A stretch of 64,000 nt of DNA, taken from Escherichia phage vB_EcoP-CHD5UKE1. The stretch lies in the sequence record NC_070989.1; one strand, written 5' to 3'. The position numbers and the translations under genes are program-made. Each line of letters begins with the position of its first letter. Position 1 is the first letter of the stretch. This document shows, one piece after another, positions 2,030 to 50,129 of this stretch. The notes below the pieces were generated by a model. That model was given only the letters and a program-made list of their open reading frames with translations, did no database searches and had not been told where the DNA came from.

Positions 2030-3571
2030 ATGTCATTAGATAAACAAATTTATGAAGCTCTAACTGGTAACAACCTTAGTGTAGAGGAAAAGAAAGCACT
2101 ATTGAATATGTTGAAAGAGCGTGACCAATGGAGGAAGTATAATAAGATTTTGTCTTTCAAGGCGTATGACTTCCAAAAGAAATTTTATGCAGCAGGATTG
2201 AAGCATCGCTTTAGATTCTTGTGTGCAGCGAACCGTGTTGGTAAATCTTACAGCGAGGCATACGAGTTTGCTTGTCATGTCACAGGTCGCTACCCAACTT
2301 GGTGGACAGGATATAAATTTAAAAGACCTATCTTAGCATGGGCAGTTGGTATTACAGGGGATTCCACAAGGAAAGTATTGCAAAAGGAATTGTTTGGTAC
2401 ACCTATCGGAAAGGATACAAATTTATTGGGGACAGGTGTCATTCCTCGTGATGCTATCGTCATTGACACGATAGAACGAGATGGTAACAAACTTCAAATC
2501 GTACAAATCAAACATCAAAACGAAAGAGGAGAGTTTGACGGTTTAAGTACATTAGAATTCCGTTCAACCCAACAGGGTGAACACACATTGATGGGTGCAA
2601 CAGTTGACTACATTTGGTTAGACGAAGAAGATCCATACGAGTCTATGGCTATATTCGCACAGTGCGTCACACGTACACTCACAACTAAAGGTCTAGTTAC
2701 AATTACAGCTACACCAGAGAACGGTTTAACTGAACTGGTAGATAAATTCATGAAAGGTGAAGGGGATGAGAGCACAGGTTCTCTATATTTCCAGAATGCT
2801 TCTTGGTGGGATGCTCATGTAGACTTAGGTGGACATATCACTGACCAAGATATAAAAGATATGACTGAAGGTATTCCAGCGTGGCAGTTAGAGATGCGTT
2901 CGAAAGGTATGCCATTGTTAGGAAGTGGTTTGATTTATGATGTATCGGATGACACAATTAAATGTGAACCATTCGAAATTCCTGATACGTGGAAACGCGT
3001 CTGTGCAATTGATATTGGTATTGATCACCCAACTGCTGCTGTTTGGACAGCTTACGATGCAAACACGGATACTATCTATGTTTACGACTCATATAAAGAA
3101 GGTGGCTTTACTCCAGTGTATCATGCTCCAGCTATTAATGGTCGTGGTCAGTGGATTCCTGTCATCCTGCCGCACGATGCGGACAATATTGAGAAAGGTA
3201 GTGGATCATCTGTTGCTCAATTCTATAAGAATGCAGGAGTTAACGTACAGAGTGAGACCTTCTACAACAAAATTGGAATGGATGGTAAAAAGAACTTCTT
3301 TGTAGAACCGGGAATCACAGATATCCGAGAAAGAATGATGAGTGGACGCTTTAAAATCTTTAACACAGCCGCTAATGCTAAGCTATTCGAAGAGAAAGCT
3401 AGATATCACCGTAAGGTTGGTAAGATTATTAAAGAACATGATGACTTAATGGATGCAATGCGCTATTCAGCGTGCTCTGTTACACATCGTGGTCGCTCTA
3501 AGCATGACGTTAGCTACGGAAGTGCTTCTCTGTATGAGGCAAACGTAAGCAGATGGAATCAGAGCTACTAA
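2030..3571 (+). CDS. terL: terminase large subunit (513 aa)
   Basis: Walker A-like CAANRVGKS, Walker B-like IWLDEED, C-terminal nuclease-like region; located just upstream of portal. Confidence 0.88.
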   Translation: MSLDKQIYEALTGNNLSVEEKKALLNMLKERDQWRKYNKILSFKAYDFQKKFYAAGLKHRFRFLCAANRVGKSYSEAYEFACHVTGRYPTWWTGYKFKRPILAWAVGITGDSTRKVLQKELFGTPIGKDTNLLGTGVIPRDAIVIDTIERDGNKLQIVQIKHQNERGEFDGLSTLEFRSTQQGEHTLMGATVDYIWLDEEDPYESMAIFAQCVTRTLTTKGLVTITATPENGLTELVDKFMKGEGDESTGSLYFQNASWWDAHVDLGGHITDQDIKDMTEGIPAWQLEMRSKGMPLLGSGLIYDVSDDTIKCEPFEIPDTWKRVCAIDIGIDHPTAAVWTAYDANTDTIYVYDSYKEGGFTPVYHAPAINGRGQWIPVILPHDADNIEKGSGSSVAQFYKNAGVNVQSETFYNKIGMDGKKNFFVEPGITDIRERMMSGRFKIFNTAANAKLFEEKARYHRKVGKIIKEHDDLMDAMRYSACSVTHRGRSKHDVSYGSASLYEANVSRWNQSY

Positions 3572-3632
3572 AGCAGGGGGGAGGTTTGTCCTCCCTTCTT
3601 TTATTTAAGCTATCAACCGAGGGAGAGAATAG

Positions 3633-5876
3633 ATGGCTAAGCAAAAATATAGTGAAGAGGTGTTGGACGAGTTACGTGTTGACCTTCAACGTCGTTTTAA
3701 TTACGCTCAAGGCTACGTGGACATGGCTGTTAAGGGCTATGCTCGTGAAGCTTGGGAATATTTCTATGGTAACTTACCTGCACCAGTAACTGCTGGCAGC
3801 TCTAGTTGGGTAGATCGTACTGTTTGGGAATCTGTTAACGGTACATTGCAAGATATTATTAACGTATTCTGTTCTGGTGATGAAGCAGTTACTTTCGTAG
3901 CTGACAACCAACAGGATTCTGATGCTGCTGATGTAGCAACTAAATTAGTTAACCAAATTCTTCTGCGTGACAATCCGGGATACAATATTATCTCTTCTGC
4001 TGCACAAGAATGTCTGGTTACTCGTAACTCTTTTATCAAGTATTATTGGGATGAACAAACTTCTACTCAAACTGAAGAAGCTGAAGGTGTACCACCGGAA
4101 GCATTGGCTGCATATGTTCAGGGATTAGAAGCTGGTGGACTCAAGAATCTGGAAGTCTTCACTGAAGAAAATGAAGACGGTACAGTCGATGTTAAAGTTA
4201 CTTACGAACAAACTGTTAAACGTGTGAAAGTTGAATATGTTCCTTCAGAGCAAATCTTTGTTGATGAACATGCTACCTCTTTTGCAGATGCACAATACTT
4301 CTGTCATCGTGTACGTCGTTCTAAAGAAGATCTGGTTGCTATGGGCTTCCCTAAAGATGAGATTGAAGCATTCAACGACTGGACAGACACGATGGATACC
4401 ACTCAATCTACGGTTGCTTGGTCTCGTACTGACTGGCGTCAGGATATTGATGCTGATATTGGTACAGATACCGAAGATATCGCTTCTATGGTTTGGGTTT
4501 ATGAGCACTATATTCGTACTGGTGTTCTAGATAAGAATAAAGAGTCTAAACTCTATCAGGTTATTCAAGCTGGTGAGCATATCCTTCACACTGAAGAAGT
4601 AACTCACATTCCGTTTGTAACCTTCTGTCCGTATCCGATTCCGGGTTCCTTCTATGGTCAATCGGTCTATGACATTACGAAAGATATTCAAGATTTACGT
4701 ACCGCGTTAGTTCGTGGTTATATTGATAACGTCAACAATGCTAACTATGGTCGATACAAAGCTCTTGTTGGTGCATACGACCGTCGCTCTCTGCTTGATA
4801 ACCGTCCCGGTGGAGTGGTTGAAATGGAACGTCAGGACGCTATTGACCTGTTCCCATACCATAACCTACCTCAAGGTATTGACGGCCTTCTAGGCATGTC
4901 TGAGGAGCTTAAAGAGACACGTACCGGTGTAACCAAACTAGGCATGGGTATCAACCCTGATGTGTTTAAGAATGATAACGCTTATGCAACCGTAGGCTTG
5001 ATGATGAATGCTGCACAGAACCGCCTCCGTATGGTATGTCGTAACATTGCTCACAACGGTATGGTTGAACTGATGCGTGGTATTTACAATCTTATCAGAG
5101 AAAATGGTGAAGTTCCTATTGAGGTACAAACCCCTCGTGGTATGATTCAGGTAAATCCGAAACAATTACCAGCTCGTCACAATCTTCAAGTTGTTGTAGC
5201 TATCTCTCCTAATGAGAAAGCAGAACGTGCACAGAAACTGATTAGCTTGAAACAGCTGATTGCAGCAGATGCACAGTTAGCACCTCTCTTTGGTTTGGAG
5301 CAAGACCGTTACATGACTGCACAGATCTTTGAGTTGATGGGTATTAAAGATACACATAAATACCTTCTGCCTCTGGAACAGTATCAGCCTCCAGAACCTT
5401 CTCCGATGGAAATCCTCCAGCTCGAGATGACTAAAGCTCAGGTTGAGAACGTACAGGCTTCTTCTCAGAAGATGATTGCTGATGCATTCGACCAACGTGA
5501 ACGTACTACATTCGAACAGCAGAAAGCTGCGGATGAATTAAGTCTGCGTCAGGAAGAGTTGCAGTTCAAGCAAGAAAATGCAGCAGATGCAATGACTCTG
5601 GAAAACCGTAAAGAAGATAACAATGCTACTCTGGAACAAGCTAAGCACAAGTTAGCTCTTATGCAACAGCAGGTCCGTCAGTATGAATCTGTACTGAAAG
5701 AATTGCAGATGGTTATGTCTCATCAGGTAGACCAAGAGAAGATTGTTCAGCAAGCTCGTGTTCAGGACAAAACTTTGGAACTCCAAAAGAAAGAAGCTAA
5801 TGTAACTAAGAAAGAGCAACAAGCTTCTCTCAAAGATTCACGGATTCCAGGCAAACGTCTTGGAAGTAAAAAGTAA
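3633..5876 (+). CDS. portal protein (747 aa) with C-terminal coiled-coil
   Basis: Size, position between terminase and scaffold, Gln/Glu-rich coiled-coil tail. Confidence 0.8.
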   Translation: MAKQKYSEEVLDELRVDLQRRFNYAQGYVDMAVKGYAREAWEYFYGNLPAPVTAGSSSWVDRTVWESVNGTLQDIINVFCSGDEAVTFVADNQQDSDAADVATKLVNQILLRDNPGYNIISSAAQECLVTRNSFIKYYWDEQTSTQTEEAEGVPPEALAAYVQGLEAGGLKNLEVFTEENEDGTVDVKVTYEQTVKRVKVEYVPSEQIFVDEHATSFADAQYFCHRVRRSKEDLVAMGFPKDEIEAFNDWTDTMDTTQSTVAWSRTDWRQDIDADIGTDTEDIASMVWVYEHYIRTGVLDKNKESKLYQVIQAGEHILHTEEVTHIPFVTFCPYPIPGSFYGQSVYDITKDIQDLRTALVRGYIDNVNNANYGRYKALVGAYDRRSLLDNRPGGVVEMERQDAIDLFPYHNLPQGIDGLLGMSEELKETRTGVTKLGMGINPDVFKNDNAYATVGLMMNAAQNRLRMVCRNIAHNGMVELMRGIYNLIRENGEVPIEVQTPRGMIQVNPKQLPARHNLQVVVAISPNEKAERAQKLISLKQLIAADAQLAPLFGLEQDRYMTAQIFELMGIKDTHKYLLPLEQYQPPEPSPMEILQLEMTKAQVENVQASSQKMIADAFDQRERTTFEQQKAADELSLRQEELQFKQENAADAMTLENRKEDNNATLEQAKHKLALMQQQVRQYESVLKELQMVMSHQVDQEKIVQQARVQDKTLELQKKEANVTKKEQQASLKDSRIPGKRLGSKK

Positions 5877-8853: not shown

Positions 8854-8923
8854 CGTTTTAAGACCTATACAAGCAAGTGTGTAATGTATATTCTTTGTCT
8901 ACATATAACAAGGAGGACAACCT

Positions 8924-25773: not shown

Positions 25774-25840
25774 GACCTAAGTCCTGCCTTCTATAATGTA
25801 TATAGGGGGTAGGACATTTTTATTTATAAAAGGAGACGTT

Positions 25841-36339: not shown

Positions 36340-36750
36340 TTTAATTTCCTTATTTAATTTGAAAGATTGTTGCTCTCTTTGAGCGGTTATGTATAGTATA
36401 CATTACGCTTATACCGATAAGAGTACTATATAATATAAGTATCTTTGGTAGTAGATATAACACACTAGTAATGTATATATTGTATAGCTGATAAAGTTAT
36501 TGCAGGCTTGTATATTGGGCAATTCACAGAATCCCTTGCAAGTACCGAAGGGCAGGAGCCACCTGCGAGATAAAAATAGAGAATTAAGGAATCCTTGATT
36601 TAGGTTGTAGGGACTCCTAGGGACTTTGATTCTCTATTTAAAAGAATATTAATTACTTATTACCTAAATAATTAACTAACTTACTTAAACCAAATTCAAG
36701 AATAATAGATAAAAAGATTATTCCTAAGAAAGCTAAAAAGTAAAGGATAT
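36340..36750 (-). promoter_or_regulatory. AT-rich 410-bp intergenic region, likely early promoter/regulatory or origin region; contains tandem TAGGGACT direct repeat at 36608-36625
   Basis: Largest non-coding gap in the minus arm, many TATA-like tracts, direct repeat read from sequence. Confidence 0.4.
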
Positions 36751-37129: not shown

Positions 37130-37285
37130 TTTTTACTCCTATTAATTATGACCAAGATTTAACTTTTACTTCGACGTATGTTTTAACTTCACCTTTCAAG
37201 ACTTCCTGAGAAGCATTTGCACTTTCCTCAGAGTGATGTACAACGGTGATATCTTTCTTTCCAATCTTATAAGTGTGAATCCAAA

Positions 37286-37486
37286 TCATACTTCTTCCTT
37301 ATATTCCCAATTTCTTTCATAATACCCAGAGTTGTAGTTTAGGACGCACCTCTCGGCCTCTTCTATGTCGTCAGTGTTTAGGATATTTACCCATCCTCCA
37401 ACTTCATCAAAACCTTCTTCTACTTCGTTAAACCATACACTATACTTTTTCATCGAGAAGTTCTTCCCCAATCTTTTACATAGCAT
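37286..37486 (-). CDS. hypothetical protein (66 aa)
   Basis: ORF in early operon. Confidence 0.4.
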   Translation of the reverse strand: MLCKRLGKNFSMKKYSVWFNEVEEGFDEVGGWVNILNTDDIEEAERCVLNYNSGYYERNWEYKEEV

Positions 37487-41450: not shown

Positions 41451-41735
41451 TCAACCTCTTGGGAATGGCATCAAAAATTCCACAGCAGATTTAATTTCAC
41501 TATTGATTCTTGAATCACGATAAGAGATAAACTTACCTTTGCTATCACGTAACATCACATGAGTTCTGGCTGTTTTGTGAGGGAGTAGTGTGACACTAGT
41601 TGGGATAGTATCAATCCCTACAGCGTATTTGTCAATAGTCTTACTTTCAGCCAACAGATAAGACCAAGTACGCGGTTTCTGCTCCGGGCGGTTGGGGTAT
41701 GTGTCTCGAATCTGTACCATAGCTAACTTATTCAT
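41451..41735 (-). CDS. hypothetical protein (94 aa), paralog of 41737-41991
   Basis: Shared C-terminal pattern KTARTxVxLRxxxGKFISY...PFPxG. Confidence 0.45.
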   Translation of the reverse strand: MNKLAMVQIRDTYPNRPEQKPRTWSYLLAESKTIDKYAVGIDTIPTSVTLLPHKTARTHVMLRDSKGKFISYRDSRINSEIKSAVEFLMPFPRG

Positions 41736-41736
41736 A

Positions 41737-41991
41737 TTAAACTCCTTTAGGGAATGGAATGAGATTTTCTACTGCAACACGGAAAGATTTTTCTACGTTC
41801 TTATTCTTATAAGAGATAAATTTTCCATCAGCTCCGCGAAGGAGTACGTTAGTGCGAGCTGTTTTTGGGTTAATCTCAATCATCCGTTCGATGATCTTGT
41901 TTGATTTGTTGTGGTGGTTAGTGAAAGTCCACTTAACAACCTTGCCATCTCTGGTTACATCAAAAATATTTACGATTTTTACAATAGACAT
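41737..41991 (-). CDS. hypothetical protein (84 aa), paralog of 41451-41735
   Basis: Same conserved C-terminal motif as the neighbour. Confidence 0.45.
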   Translation of the reverse strand: MSIVKIVNIFDVTRDGKVVKWTFTNHHNKSNKIIERMIEINPKTARTNVLLRGADGKFISYKNKNVEKSFRVAVENLIPFPKGV

Positions 41992-42377: not shown

Positions 42378-42431
42378 TTAAAACTCCTTAATATATCAGT
42401 GTACACTAAGGAGTATACATTATGGATGCTA

Positions 42432-46091: not shown

Positions 46092-46691
46092 TTAGTAAGA
46101 CACGTCACCACTTGAATGGGACATGTTGCTCTTGACGAAGTAGCAATACTTGCCAAGACCTTCATTAATTTCTTGAAGCATACTCTGATCGACAGGGTAG
46201 GTGGCTAAATCACCATCAAACTCATCCATCTTCTCAATAATACACATCAAGGTCATGCACATATCAGAGAGCATACCGTCCATGTCTAGATCAGCATTAC
46301 CCTCTGAGAACCAAGCATGAGAGAGATAGTTAGCTGCTGTAGCATCCACTTTAACGCAGTGGTAACGCATACGTTCAGCGATACGATCTCCTACCTGTCG
46401 TGCGTAATCTTCCAGCTCATCAAACATACCATGAACACCCTGAAATCCTGCACCAGAGACGTTCCAGTGGTAGTTTTTAGCTTTGATATGCAATAGTTCC
46501 ATGTTAGCTTGTAAGCAGCTCAGGATGTGTTCTAGGCTGTTTGCACTAATCATACCTTGCATCGTTTCAAGGCGAGAGATTGAAAGCTCAGACCGGTCTA
46601 ACATACTATAACTGTCACGACCAATCTCAGGTAAATCAAAGACATTCTTATGCATTTGGGTTTTCTCCATCAAGTTCAACTGAGTTAGCAA
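46092..46691 (-). CDS. Dps/ferritin-like protein (199 aa)
   Basis: Dps-like block LHIKAKNYHWNVSGAGFQGVHGMFDELEDYARQVGDRIAERM. Confidence 0.6.
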   Translation of the reverse strand: MLTQLNLMEKTQMHKNVFDLPEIGRDSYSMLDRSELSISRLETMQGMISANSLEHILSCLQANMELLHIKAKNYHWNVSGAGFQGVHGMFDELEDYARQVGDRIAERMRYHCVKVDATAANYLSHAWFSEGNADLDMDGMLSDMCMTLMCIIEKMDEFDGDLATYPVDQSMLQEINEGLGKYCYFVKSNMSHSSGDVSY

Positions 46692-46977
46692 CGTTACGTG
46701 AAATATTATCCATTACCTGCTGGGTAATTACGATGCAGTTCTGTGGGTCTACTGACTTAGAACGCCCCATTTCAGGGTCATACACCTTAACTCGCTTAGC
46801 AGTTGAACCTGTGACCTGAAGAACCTTCAACAGATACCCCTGATTACCAATAGACCAAGCAACAACATCACGATTCTTGATAAAGCGACCAAGCATATCA
46901 CGATGATAAAACTGTTGCATCACCTTGGATTTTGTAATCTCTTCAGTGGGCGGGGCCACTTTACTCAAATCTAACAT
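46648..46977 (-). CDS. hypothetical protein (109 aa)
   Basis: ORF in operon. Confidence 0.45.
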   Translation of the reverse strand: MLDLSKVAPPTEEITKSKVMQQFYHRDMLGRFIKNRDVVAWSIGNQGYLLKVLQVTGSTAKRVKVYDPEMGRSKSVDPQNCIVITQQVMDNISRNVANSVELDGENPNA

Positions 46978-47049
46978 AACTCTCTCCTGTAAAATACAAA
47001 TTCTTATTGTACTCTATATACATTTGAGAGTTATCATATCTACTACCAA

Positions 47050-47259
47050 TCAGTAGTAAATTACTTTAGACATAAAAGAACCAGTGTTAGGGTCTTCATA
47101 CCAGCGATGTATGTCAGCGCTTTTTACTATTGTGCCCAGAGTCTTCAACTGTTTCTTAGCAATACGAGCCTCTTTGCGAGTGTCAAACAATTTGATGTTA
47201 TCTTTTCTCATGTGTTGCTCAAGATCCCAAACAACATGAATAGCCCACATCTTTTTCAT
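47050..47259 (-). CDS. small basic protein (69 aa), member of a tandem three-gene paralog family
   Basis: Shares size, basic character and C-terminal KVxYY-type ending with the two upstream ORFs. Confidence 0.45.
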   Translation of the reverse strand: MKKMWAIHVVWDLEQHMRKDNIKLFDTRKEARIAKKQLKTLGTIVKSADIHRWYEDPNTGSFMSKVIYY

Positions 47260-47468
47260 TAGTAATGTACCTTTCCGCTGATATAAACACGACCAGAAGA
47301 ATACTCCTTGGCCTTATGAATACTGATGCTCTTAGTTAAGTCTACATTGAACATAGACTTTTTAAAATCTCGAGCCTGTTGACGAGTGGGTAGTGCAGTC
47401 ATAGTCATACCACCTGATGCCCACTTAATCTTTGCTAACCAAAATTGTCTCATAGTGATCGGTCTCAT
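47259..47468 (-). CDS. small basic protein (69 aa), paralog family member
   Basis: Tandem paralog; 1-nt overlap with neighbours. Confidence 0.45.
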   Translation of the reverse strand: MRPITMRQFWLAKIKWASGGMTMTALPTRQQARDFKKSMFNVDLTKSISIHKAKEYSSGRVYISGKVHY

Positions 47469-47665
47469 TAATAATAAACCTTACTGTTAACACAAAAAGC
47501 ACCTTCACTATTCACGATAGCTTTTCCTAGTGTAACCTTATTAAGTCTAAAAGTAGATTTGTATTGATTTTTGACCCTACGTGCGTGCTCTCGAGTCTTA
47601 ACAAAATCTACAGCTACTAACTCTCCAGTCGTGTTATCATGTACACGAACAATCCACTTTTTCAT
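47468..47665 (-). CDS. small basic protein (65 aa), paralog family member
   Basis: Tandem paralog ending SKVYY. Confidence 0.45.
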   Translation of the reverse strand: MKKWIVRVHDNTTGELVAVDFVKTREHARRVKNQYKSTFRLNKVTLGKAIVNSEGAFCVNSKVYY

Positions 47666-48199
47666 TTACACACCTTTAGATGCAACTACACCTTCAGAGT
47701 TATTATAACGACCCTTCACTGCATAGGAGTGCTCCCCTGCATGAGAGTGCTCAAACATGACCATCTGACCAACACGCATACCAGCACGAACTCGTAAGCT
47801 GTGGTGCTTGGTTACGTTATGGAATTCAAATGTCAGCTTACTGCTATTAAATCCTGCATCTGCCCAACCTGCGTGAAGGTGGTTCAAACCACAACGAGCC
47901 ATAGATGAACGCAGAACAAACAGACTTGAGATGTTGTCTGGAAGATTAAACTCCTCCATAGAGTGAGCCAAGAAGAACTGACCCGGAGTGATAACCAAAC
48001 CCTCTTCAGGAATCTTTACTTCCTTCCACTGAAGATTCTCTTTCGCATCAATATCAACGATGCCATCAGCCTGTTCTTCAACAAGGATAGTATCACCAAT
48101 ACGGATATCCACACTAGCAGCGTTAACATACTTATGCTCCGCATCCAGATAGCCATTGTCAATTACATCATGCAGTTCAACACTTCCTAGTAAACTCAT
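47666..48199 (-). CDS. dCTP deaminase/dUTPase-family protein (177 aa)
   Basis: Size and ASVDIRIGD block resembling the Dcd/dUTPase beta-barrel family. Confidence 0.55.
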   Translation of the reverse strand: MSLLGSVELHDVIDNGYLDAEHKYVNAASVDIRIGDTILVEEQADGIVDIDAKENLQWKEVKIPEEGLVITPGQFFLAHSMEEFNLPDNISSLFVLRSSMARCGLNHLHAGWADAGFNSSKLTFEFHNVTKHHSLRVRAGMRVGQMVMFEHSHAGEHSYAVKGRYNNSEGVVASKGV

Positions 48200-48208
48200 T
48201 CTTATTCC

Positions 48209-49570
48209 TTAGTTATTTGTTTCCATGTCAAAAGAGATTCCACGACCCGCTTCATCGGCAAACCGAACTGTTCGGGTTTGAGGTTCTAATACTTCAGGGT
48301 TGTTAGCAACAAACCGATCAGCGAGACTACGACTGACAGTCTCAGCTAATTCACCATGAGAAGGGATATCAAGACTACCTACCACATCTTGGGCCACACC
48401 TTCATCAGTCCACACAGCCCTAACAGGTGCGTTGATATCACCAACAGCAAAACCCTGACCAGAGAACTGACGTGCGCTAACAGTTAAACCGTTTGGTCGA
48501 CCACGAGAAGGTCTAGCCATCCATCGCTCCATAGAATCACTTGTAATACCAAGAGCTTCTTCAAAAGATGTTCTACGAGTAGGGCTTACTCTTCGTGACT
48601 CTTGTGCTCGACGCATTGCAGGGGCTACAAACACCCCTTCAATTGCATTGTGTCGGTTAGGTTCCTCTTCTCGACCAAGCAGATCACCACCCGTGTTAGT
48701 CGTTAAATTTGTCAACCCCTCAGACCAATACGCATGAATCTGACCAGAACCGTGAAGACTAGACATAATCTGAATCTCTTCATAAGGGATTCCAAAGAAT
48801 CGACTCATGTCTCGGTTGACACAATATAGAGCACTTGTTGTATCTTCAATAAGAGAAACCTGACCTAATCCATTGACTAGATGACTAACTGGCTGAGGTG
48901 TGGGAAGATATCGAGTTTGGGCCATGTATTGATGTGCAACTGCTGGAGAGGAAAATCTCAACACTTGTGAGTTAGGCCACTTCTTGTGAACATACCTGAT
49001 TTCACGACTAGAGACAACCACTGGACAAGGGGAAGTCATAGCCAAATATCCGTGAGAAGTCATGAATAAGTTGTCAAGAGTCATCGCACCACGGCACATC
49101 ATGGGAAAATTATCCAATACCTCTTCAATAGAAGTAGGATAATTAAACATGAATTGGATACGAACCCCATTCCACTGAAACTCAATAATATCAGTGAATG
49201 TTAATTGAGAACCCCCAGCATAGGATTCGTTTGTAGCTTCAGCAAGAAGTGATGCATATTCAATATCTTGTGACTCTAGCCATTCCTTCACATTACTTTC
49301 AATCTCCCGTCCAAGCTCTTGCCAACGATCAGTTGGGATGAAAGTGTTTTGAGTTCTTGGTGTTTGTCCTCTGACAATAAAGATATCAATGTCATGTGGA
49401 GCTATGTTATTAAGGACAGCATCACGAACAGCCCCACCAGTAATGATGGGACAGATACCATCTGGAATCAAGTTGTTATTAATCAACTGTTCAATGAAGT
49501 GACGACCAACAGTGATATCAGGTTGTTGAGCAACCTTATCTTCAATTTGGTTAATCGGGATAACAATCAT
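48209..49570 (-). CDS. nucleotidyltransferase with CCA-adding/poly(A)-polymerase-type head domain (about 453 aa from ATG 49570)
   Basis: GGAVRD followed by DIDIF (class II tRNA nucleotidyltransferase/PAP head signature GGxVRD...DxD); start 1 nt after the stop of the exonuclease gene. Confidence 0.55.
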   Translation of the reverse strand: MIVIPINQIEDKVAQQPDITVGRHFIEQLINNNLIPDGICPIITGGAVRDAVLNNIAPHDIDIFIVRGQTPRTQNTFIPTDRWQELGREIESNVKEWLESQDIEYASLLAEATNESYAGGSQLTFTDIIEFQWNGVRIQFMFNYPTSIEEVLDNFPMMCRGAMTLDNLFMTSHGYLAMTSPCPVVVSSREIRYVHKKWPNSQVLRFSSPAVAHQYMAQTRYLPTPQPVSHLVNGLGQVSLIEDTTSALYCVNRDMSRFFGIPYEEIQIMSSLHGSGQIHAYWSEGLTNLTTNTGGDLLGREEEPNRHNAIEGVFVAPAMRRAQESRRVSPTRRTSFEEALGITSDSMERWMARPSRGRPNGLTVSARQFSGQGFAVGDINAPVRAVWTDEGVAQDVVGSLDIPSHGELAETVSRSLADRFVANNPEVLEPQTRTVRFADEAGRGISFDMETNN

Positions 49571-49571
49571 T

Positions 49572-50129
49572 TTACATTTTCCAATATAATGAAGGTGGGT
49601 CGTAAGGGTCAAATCCCGTGAGTTCACACAAGAAAAGATAAACCTTAACAGTTAAGTTAACGTCCTGTTCACAATAAGTAAACATATCTTCAGTGAAAGC
49701 ATCCCATGCTTCCTCTTGCTCACCATAATCGCCCTTAAGCTCTCCTAAGAACTCACCCCACTGCTTCAAACCATGACCTCTTGGGCCACGTCTAGGGTCG
49801 CCTTTCGGATACTCAGGACTGTCACCAATACGGTCAGGTTTAAGATATCGACTAAGACATAAAGTGTCAAAGACGTTAAAATTATATTTAATCAAAGAGG
49901 GATACATCTTTTTCAGAGCAGGTAAGTCGAAGTCAATAATATTATGACCCACTAGTACATCTGCTTCTGTAAGTTTACGAATCCCATCTTCAATTTGGTG
50001 AGGCCGATAGCCCCACCTTTCACCAGTTTCAACATCAAAGATATAAATACACCATACTTTAGTTATGTCATCGTACAGTGCATTACTCTCGATATCGAAT
50101 GCAAACACTTTCTTCTTTTTCTTTACCAC
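49572..50129 (-). CDS. DnaQ-like DEDDh 3'-5' exonuclease (185 aa), separately encoded proofreading-type domain
   Basis: Exo I FDIES, Exo [11 protein letters not shown], Exo III YCEQD motifs. Confidence 0.75.

Follow-up and report, generated by a model that had tools for sequence, protein, structure and literature searches.

The small phage proteins clustered as PHROG 4939, which include gp69, gp70 and gp71 of phiEco32, gp069-071 of SU10 and gp071-073 of KBNP1711, have been deposited as "hypothetical protein," and the published accounts of SU10, of YF01 and Kuravirus, of 7-11 and of BASEL do not describe the family as a paralogous array. Our literature searches for phi32 gp69, gp70 and gp71 found no papers, and a search on Kuravirus, anti-defense and paralogs found no paper about the genes of the array. 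We analyzed a 64,000-nucleotide stretch of DNA from Escherichia phage vB_EcoP-CHD5UKE1 (NC_070989.1), hereafter the window, in which three consecutive open reading frames (ORFs) at positions 47,050 to 47,665 had been predicted to be a recent tandem triplication of a small basic protein family. They are the same genes as those of phiEco32, SU10 and KBNP1711, with no difference in kind: because the phiEco32 annotation has gp71, gp70 and gp69 at the same position, we identify the three ORFs from their sequences as orthologs of these and as members of an old multigene family, PHROG 4939. The array is an ordinary lineage-specific, fast-evolving multigene family of small phage accessory proteins.

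All three ORFs start with ATG and lie on the minus strand, which the original prediction had left unstated, and we named them C, B and A in the order of transcription. Copy C (47468..47665; 65 amino acids [aa]; isoelectric point [pI] 10.1) is transcribed first and corresponds to phiEco32 gp71 and Bas91_0065; copy B (47259..47468; 69 aa as annotated; pI 10.4, calculated for a 64-aa form) corresponds to gp70 and Bas91_0064, and copy A, the last in the array (47050..47259; 69 aa; pI 9.8), to gp69 and Bas91_0063. The ORF list gives exactly 69, 69 and 65 aa, in agreement with the predicted range of 65-69 aa, and the pI values together with net charges of +6 to +9 bear out the basic composition. The proposed spacing of 0-1 nucleotides (nt) is essentially right: the TAA stop codon of the dCTP deaminase gene (47668-47666) touches the ATG of copy C (47665) with a gap of 0 nt, and the C/B and B/A junctions overlap by 1 nt within TAATG (47470-47466 and 47261-47257). 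The shared C-terminal ending, given as K/R-V-x-Y/H-Y, is a real motif but as written fits only copy A (K-V-I-Y-Y); copies B and C end in K-V-H-Y and K-V-Y-Y, and the motif is better expressed as K-V-(x)-[YH]-Y.

Reading the minus strand directly, we found a Shine-Dalgarno-like string ahead of each start: AAAGGTG before copy C, in the last codons of the dCTP deaminase gene (47677-47671), TAAGGT where the 3' end of C encodes K-V (47478..47483), which places it 9-14 nt ahead of the ATG annotated for B, and GGAAAGGT where the 3' end of B encodes G-K-V (47269..47276), ahead of the ATG of A. The TAAGGT site inside C suggests translational coupling of B, and, because such strings fall within the K-V codons, this part of the C-terminal motif would also serve for ribosome binding in C and B. 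Copy A retains K-V-I-Y-Y with other codons and with no coupled gene downstream, which argues that the K-V motif is constrained at the protein level, too. As annotated, B starts with five residues (MRPIT) not present in many orthologs, and the match of the phrog_4939 profile to B begins at residue 6. As many orthologs begin MK(K/Q/R)FW, the homologous start of B is probably the internal ATG at 47453 (M6, giving 64 aa).

The amino acid identity among the three paralogs of the window is 22-28%, and single pairwise BLASTP comparisons gave E = 1e-3 for A/B, 0.09 for A/C and 1e-4 for B/C. The phrog_4939 profile of 67 columns matched A at 1.7e-28 (residues 1-69 on profile positions 1-67), B at 1.8e-27 (residues 6-69) and C at 1.2e-27 (residues 1-65). 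For a comparison between the groups, we split 92 clusters (90% identity) by ortholog group (35 for A, 16 for B and 41 for C), built a hidden Markov model (HMM) from each group alone and ran it against all 638 six-frame ORFs of the window; the other two copies were top-ranked among the 638 ORFs, with E values from 1e-6 to 0.036. Full-length alignment of the group profiles with hhalign gave 1.3e-10 for A-B, 8.7e-6 for A-C and 2.3e-6 for B-C. The AlphaFold2 models of C (predicted local distance difference test [pLDDT] 82) and A (pLDDT 87, predicted template modeling score 0.72) both showed a strand-strand-helix-strand-strand order. In a Foldseek search of viral models (BFVD), the top five matches were all family members, from five phages (template modeling [TM] score 0.67-0.83), only the KBNP1711 member among them having E < 1e-3. 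At the same position in Kuravirus genomes, "hypothetical proteins" are 89-100% identical to A, B and C. Pairwise alignment and structure prediction were among the checks proposed with the original prediction, and a lack of significant similarity among the three, named there as the outcome that would speak against it, did not appear; the tandem triplication of one small basic family is upheld by the phrog_4939 profile, the cross-group HMMs, the hhalign comparisons and the topology shared by the models of A and C.

With proteins this short and with so much K and R, the BLASTP E value of 0.09 for A against C is the kind of result that a chance or compositional artifact of short basic ORFs, or ORFs that are not genes, could give. 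We regard such an artifact as next to inconceivable: the reciprocal cross-group HMM matches come first among the 638 ORFs, the hhalign values range from 1e-10 to 9e-6, a single PHROG takes in all three copies at about 1e-27 and the predicted topologies of A and C are identical. In addition, the ratio of nonsynonymous to synonymous substitution rates (dN/dS) is below 0.4 in all ortholog comparisons, and dozens of phage genomes have the genes annotated and in synteny. Searching with the family profile, we found no extra PHROG 4939 copy in the window with E < 0.88. A segment at 37149-37298, with E = 0.16 for the A profile, was not recovered with the family profile and was rejected as an extra copy.

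Each of the proteins is about 7.5 kDa and strongly basic, with a single beta-beta-alpha-beta-beta domain predicted in the models of A and C, and a basic character is common to the whole family of 114 members (pI 9.7-11.1; net charges from +5 to +12). In 36 diverse aligned sequences, M1, W4, T24, R25, A28, R29, K32 and Y65 (numbering of C) were invariant or nearly so and K33 and K36 stood at 72%, most other columns having an entropy above 2 bits. The core Trp (W4) is placed on strand 1, and T24 caps the helix, which begins with T-R and follows the pattern T-R-x-x-A-R-x-x-K, with R, A, R, K, (K) and (K) at i, i+3, i+4, i+7, i+8 and i+11. By this helical periodicity, R25, A28, R29, K32, K33 and K36 would lie on one helical face and form a basic stripe centered on a small Ala. 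Of the members, 94% keep the C-terminal Tyr; in the C model, pLDDT drops below 50 over the final three residues. Copies A, B and C had no match in Pfam or NCBIfam, and the best Pfam match among the 36 diverse members was to DUF5893 (E = 0.0067, 2 of the 36). Among PDB sequences the best match was the basic region of CREB1 (E = 1.7, not significant). Foldseek on PDB structures placed PsaD first (E 0.13) and also listed ERH and RbcS, with no known binding fold recognized; judged on the predicted models, these matches are a likeness of shape to generic two-layer sandwiches and not family membership.

We tentatively propose that the ligand of the conserved basic helix face is a polyanion, nucleic acid being the likeliest candidate (DNA of the phage or the host, or RNA), and that the hypervariable hairpins and loops would differentiate the paralogs, giving each its own specificity or partner. 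Differing specificities of this kind would account for the retention of two to four divergent copies next to each other. We rate this proposal as plausible, with a chance somewhat short of even. It is the most economical reading because the basic helix face is common to all paralogs, the proteins are cationic and the setting is one of DNA-metabolism genes; the family copies whose neighbors were examined are all located among DNA-replication and nucleotide-metabolism genes. Several considerations weigh against it. Architectural and nucleic-acid-binding proteins are usually slow-evolving, and the fast mosaic evolution and the copy-number flux described below are no less consistent with a conflict-driven protein-protein interaction. 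The basic surface could equally bind an acidic protein, the solvent exposure of the conserved stripe rests on helical periodicity and not on a computed surface, and a bZIP identity of the helix was rejected, the CREB1 match not being significant.

The original prediction took the duplication to be recent; we find it, on several lines of sequence comparison, to be ancient. At the DNA level, the local alignments of the window paralogs scored 10-12, compared with a mean of 9.4 and a maximum of 14 for shuffled sequences. In a neighbor-joining tree of diverse members, which was built from about 65 residues without bootstrap and is indicative only, types A, B and C formed separate clades, each including other genera: KBNP1711 (Nieuwekanaalvirus) has one each of types A, B and C, and ECBP2 (Suseptimavirus) has one B-type and one A-type protein. 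Because each clade has members of different genera, the split into A, B and C would, as far as this rough tree goes, be older than the divergence of Kuravirus, Nieuwekanaalvirus and Suseptimavirus. Of the two marks by which we would recognize a recent tandem duplication, DNA-level similarity and paralogs closer to each other than to cross-genus orthologs, neither was seen. An amino acid identity as low as that among the window copies, DNA similarity no higher than that of shuffles, cross-genus clades and purifying selection on the orthologs all contradict a recent origin.

The predicted diversification, on the other hand, is evident from the identities to the window. In ECBP2, the dCTP deaminase and the homolog of phiEco32 gp68, which flank the array, are 95.5% and 91.7% identical, while A and B have fallen to 42% and 48% and C is absent. 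The corresponding values in KBNP1711 are 96.0% and 90.8% for the flanking proteins and 98.6%, 54.5% and 52.3% for A, B and C, and in SU10 they are 99.4% and 99.1% for the flanking proteins and 98.6%, 93.8% and 69% for A, B and C. By the Nei-Gojobori method, dN/dS was 0.08-0.37 for the array, compared with 0.03-0.10 for the dCTP deaminase, gp68 and Dps-like genes; the exception was dCTP deaminase against the divergent locus L008, with 0.15. The range for the array marks real genes under purifying selection, with weak constraint. Across genera, dN was 0.34-0.51 for the array and 0.02-0.07 for its neighbors, and at the protein level the array genes evolve 7-20 times faster than the neighbors.

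The mosaic history seen in these comparisons indicates, at the level of sequence, gene-by-gene exchange. Among the A-type proteins, the first 48 residues are almost identical but are followed by four distinct C-terminal hairpin variants, and some of the proteins (L021) end in ...SYISGDVHY, like the B-type ending ...FYISGKVHY. Recent gene conversion between the paralogs was considered and rejected, as the A and B tails of L021 have no DNA similarity; the best local DNA match between the two genes covers the conserved NTRKEAR..KK codons (17 vs. a shuffle maximum of 14). Two copy C proteins of 79 aa (P0074 and P0090) carry a frameshift near residue 58 and run into ...LPTVRFIINETDH(H/Y)ETILVSKD, and in the phage records PV591328 and PV574017 tblastn reaches only residues 1-58 of copy C. 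These cases are either sequencing errors or a sign that some phages have a disrupted and dispensable copy C.

A 3-kb segment around the array matches Escherichia phage LorandFenyves_Bas91 at 97.7% identity and many further Kuravirus-type coliphages, SU10 and phiEco32 among them, at 95-97%; over the array region, SU10 and the window have 95.6% DNA identity. This identity of 95-97.7% to Bas91 and the Kuravirus-type coliphages places the source phage, by sequence, among the phiEco32-like podophages of the subfamily Gordonclarkvirinae. GC skew changes sign at about 30 kb, and the array belongs to the leftward-transcribed part of the genome. The genes of the preceding unit, all leading into the array, come in the order primase-helicase, exonuclease, nucleotidyltransferase and dCTP deaminase, followed by C, B and A. 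The dCTP deaminase gene (47666..48199, minus strand; Pfam DCD, 3.5e-34) is directly upstream of copy C, with a gap of 0 nt, and downstream of copy A stands the gp68 homolog, a conserved hypothetical protein of 109 aa (46648..46977, minus strand; phrog_10984), which is the downstream limit of the array at all loci examined. The order of dCTP deaminase gene, array and gp68 homolog is also found in Bas91, SU10, YW01, phiEco32, KBNP1711, ECBP2 and metagenomic relatives.

Two further neighbors carry names that their sequences support to different degrees. The "nucleotidyltransferase" of 472 aa (48209-49627, minus strand; phrog_12715) shows a PolyA_pol head domain only below the threshold (E = 0.0024), and its homolog in L008 has a faint precomputed Pfam match to Gad2 (anti-Gabija). 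A Dps/ferritin-like "DNA binding protein" (46092-46691, minus strand; phrog_3636; Pfam Ferritin, 2.8e-07) is called "integrase" in several GenBank records (YW01, EC.W2-6, DE5 and others), probably an annotation error propagated between records.

In phiEco32, the DNA-replication and nucleotide-metabolism cluster belongs to the middle temporal class (PMC8948821, PMC9965538), a promoter of the phage sigma factor gp36 has been mapped experimentally upstream of gene 68 (PMC8948821), and in phiEco32-type phages the early gene cluster is regarded as the host-takeover region (PMC8948821, PMC9965538). The 72-nt gap between copy A and the gp68 homolog contains AAATGTATA (47017..47025, minus strand), a match to the middle/late promoter element tAATGTAtA of the phiEco32 gp36 sigma factor. 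The pattern WAATGTATA has six matches in the window, compared with 1.5 expected by chance, the others being at 8882-8890 (+), 25794-25802 (+), 36397-36405 (-), 36469-36477 (+) and 42414-42422 (-); together they probably mark middle and late promoters of the phage. The match at 36469 (+) is on the strand opposite to local transcription. Because the promoter element stands between A and the gp68 homolog, the array appears to be the 3' end of the preceding transcription unit; no terminator-like site was found after A. Each ORF starts where the one before it stops, beginning at the end of the dCTP deaminase gene, and the Shine-Dalgarno-like sites lie inside the preceding genes; from this layout and the published work on phiEco32, the array proteins are probably made together with the replication enzymes.

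Family copies number 2-4 per genome. Kuravirus has three in tandem and KBNP1711 (L010) has three plus a dispersed one (4277-4522; neighboring genes not checked); Suseptimavirus-like contigs have two copies at the dCTP deaminase site and two between the thioredoxin and ThyX genes, and other metagenomic relatives have two, three or four tandem copies. Copy C is absent from Suseptimavirus-type genomes. Two insertion sites can be recognized in the nucleotide-metabolism module, the gap between the dCTP deaminase gene and gene 68 and that between the thioredoxin and ThyX genes, the copies at the second lying at 3759-4210 in the Suseptimavirus-like contigs L016 and L017 and at 5514-6222 in L008. The second site is empty in the window, and the two genes that bound it are about 15 nt apart in Bas91. 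From this distribution, the family has evidently gained and lost copies over time. SU10 (L002) has an extra 68-aa ORF, gp072 (MNKEEFQELKYL...), between the dCTP deaminase gene and copy C (2663-2869, minus strand). The ORF was rejected as a fourth copy, being unrelated in sequence and not matched by the family HMM. With the divergent C (69%) next to it and flanks of 95-99% identity, it looks like a small-cassette exchange at the junction. In the metagenomic relative L008, an HNH_3 homing-endonuclease gene (3367-3876, plus strand) lies between the dCTP deaminase gene and the array, and YW01 has a homing endonuclease near the array. The region around the array appears, from these sequences, to be an insertion hot spot.

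The same layout could point to accessory or regulatory subunits of the dCTP deaminase, thioredoxin, ThyX, the nucleotidyltransferase or the replisome, which would dock perhaps via the C-terminal Tyr tail. The copies adjoin nucleotide-metabolism genes, some following dCTP deaminase and others flanked by thioredoxin and ThyX; the first copy begins right where the dCTP deaminase gene stops, and the Tyr retained by 94% of the members ends a tail that has pLDDT < 50 in the model of C. Obligate subunits are expected to covary with their partner, however, and here the enzymes are 91-100% conserved while the small proteins fall to 42-55% or are lost. The same sites also take unrelated inserts, such as SU10 gp072 and the L008 HNH endonuclease, and may be just a permissive hot spot. 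We consider a subunit role distinctly unlikely.

The family is taxonomically narrow. When 1.84 billion cluster representatives were scanned exhaustively with HMMER, only 20 clusters reached E <= 1e-3; wherever a contig extended far enough to include neighbors of a member, the synteny was Gordonclarkvirinae-like, tblastn of the phage database gave convincing matches in Escherichia and Shigella phages only, and an exact 20-mer scan of IMG/VR found only 5 loci, mostly in known genomes. Across these searches, the PHROG 4939 family is, by sequence, restricted to Gordonclarkvirinae-like coliphages.

This narrow range is among the patterns that could be expected if the proteins were host-factor inhibitors or anti-defense proteins, types of gene that the original prediction also brought up, with each paralog neutralizing a different or differently allelic host protein; the variable hairpins would follow host variation, and the array would grow and shrink in an arms race. 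The array is also the fastest-evolving segment of its neighborhood and a mosaic (A at 98.6% and B and C at 52-55% in KBNP1711, C at 69% in SU10), four C-terminal hairpin variants stand on near-identical A-type N-terminal parts, and the copy number varies between two and four; the small class II inhibitors of T7, encoded among replication genes, can be added as an analogy only. The array is, however, part of the middle replication cluster and not of the early host-takeover cluster, which weakens this reading, and with an overall dN/dS < 0.4 no positive selection has been demonstrated. The invariant basic helix in all paralogs suggests one common ligand and not many targets. The inhibitors of restriction and of nucleases that are best known mimic DNA and are acidic, unlike this strongly basic family; no homology to a known inhibitor was found, and no known anti-defense fold was matched, p56 reaching only E 1.7 and TM 0.43-0.51. 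On balance, we regard an anti-defense role as rather unlikely and continue to prefer, tentatively, polyanion binding by the basic helix.

Gordonclarkvirinae are reported to be strikingly resistant to restriction-modification by a mechanism that is not known (PMC11990801), which also speaks for anti-defense proteins in these phages. The authors of the BASEL study have proposed the dCTP deaminase and the nucleotidyltransferase as a possible basis of DNA modification or restriction resistance and speculate that Gordonclarkvirinae may contain dU-DNA (PMC11990801). That the array is a so far unrecognized part of this near-immunity (PMC11990801) seems to us a long shot; possible routes would be the coating or marking of replicating DNA, work together with the dCTP deaminase and the nucleotidyltransferase, or paralogs each disarming a different host nuclease. 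If it were true, the PHROG 4939 fold would be a new DNA-protection or anti-restriction module, and proteins that protect phage DNA or inhibit defenses would help to account for the wide range of hosts on which Kuravirus-type phages plate. In any case, the array adjoins the two genes cited for the unexplained restriction resistance of therapeutically popular coliphages, and proteins without a recognizable Pfam or PDB relative that are nevertheless confidently folded make a compact and tractable candidate for structural and functional work. Knock-outs are feasible, as the relatives Bas90 and Bas91 infect K-12 in which the O16 antigen has been restored.

A similar tandem pair noted by the original prediction at 41451-41991 consists of true paralogs, though of another family. 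The two genes, of 94 aa (41451..41735) and 84 aa (41737..41991), both on the minus strand, match phrog_6814 at 2e-36 and 3e-36, and BLASTP between the products gave 31% identity (E = 1e-15). The phrog_4939 family profile had no match to the pair, and Pfam and NCBIfam had none either. The two share a C-terminal block, KTART.V.LR...GKFISY...AVE.L.PFP.G, and a size-matched tandem pair (83 aa plus 94, 85 and 85 aa) is found at the same position in L008, L016 and L017, homology being seen for one L008 ORF only.

Compared with known systems, the predicted fold resembles the Rubisco small-subunit-like proteins (SSUL/RbcS), PsaD and ERH as generic two-layer beta-beta-alpha-beta-beta sandwiches, and the resemblance is in the fold only. 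The T-R-x-x-A-R-x-x-K-K helix aligns superficially with the basic region of CREB (bZIP pattern N-x-x-A-A-x-x-C/S-R), but it has 13-14 residues and is predicted to be packed on a beta-sheet, whereas a bZIP has a long free helix and a leucine zipper. The uracil-DNA-glycosylase inhibitor p56 of phi29 and VMY22, which appeared in the Foldseek list, is likewise a small alpha/beta protein encoded by phages and draws interest because of the speculation about dU-DNA. As a DNA mimic it is acidic, in contrast to the strongly basic PHROG 4939 proteins, and with the scores given above it was rejected as a relative. The class II region of T7 encodes the small host inhibitors gp1.2, gp2, gp4.5, gp5.5, gp5.7 and gp5.9 among replication genes. 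These have no sequence or fold relationship to PHROG 4939 and differ from it in being single-copy, mutually unrelated and in several cases acidic, whereas the PHROG 4939 proteins are basic and kept in 2-4 divergent copies. They are nonetheless alike in being small (50-100 aa) accessory proteins that are encoded among, and expressed with, replication genes, and the T7 proteins set a precedent for host inhibitors outside the early region.

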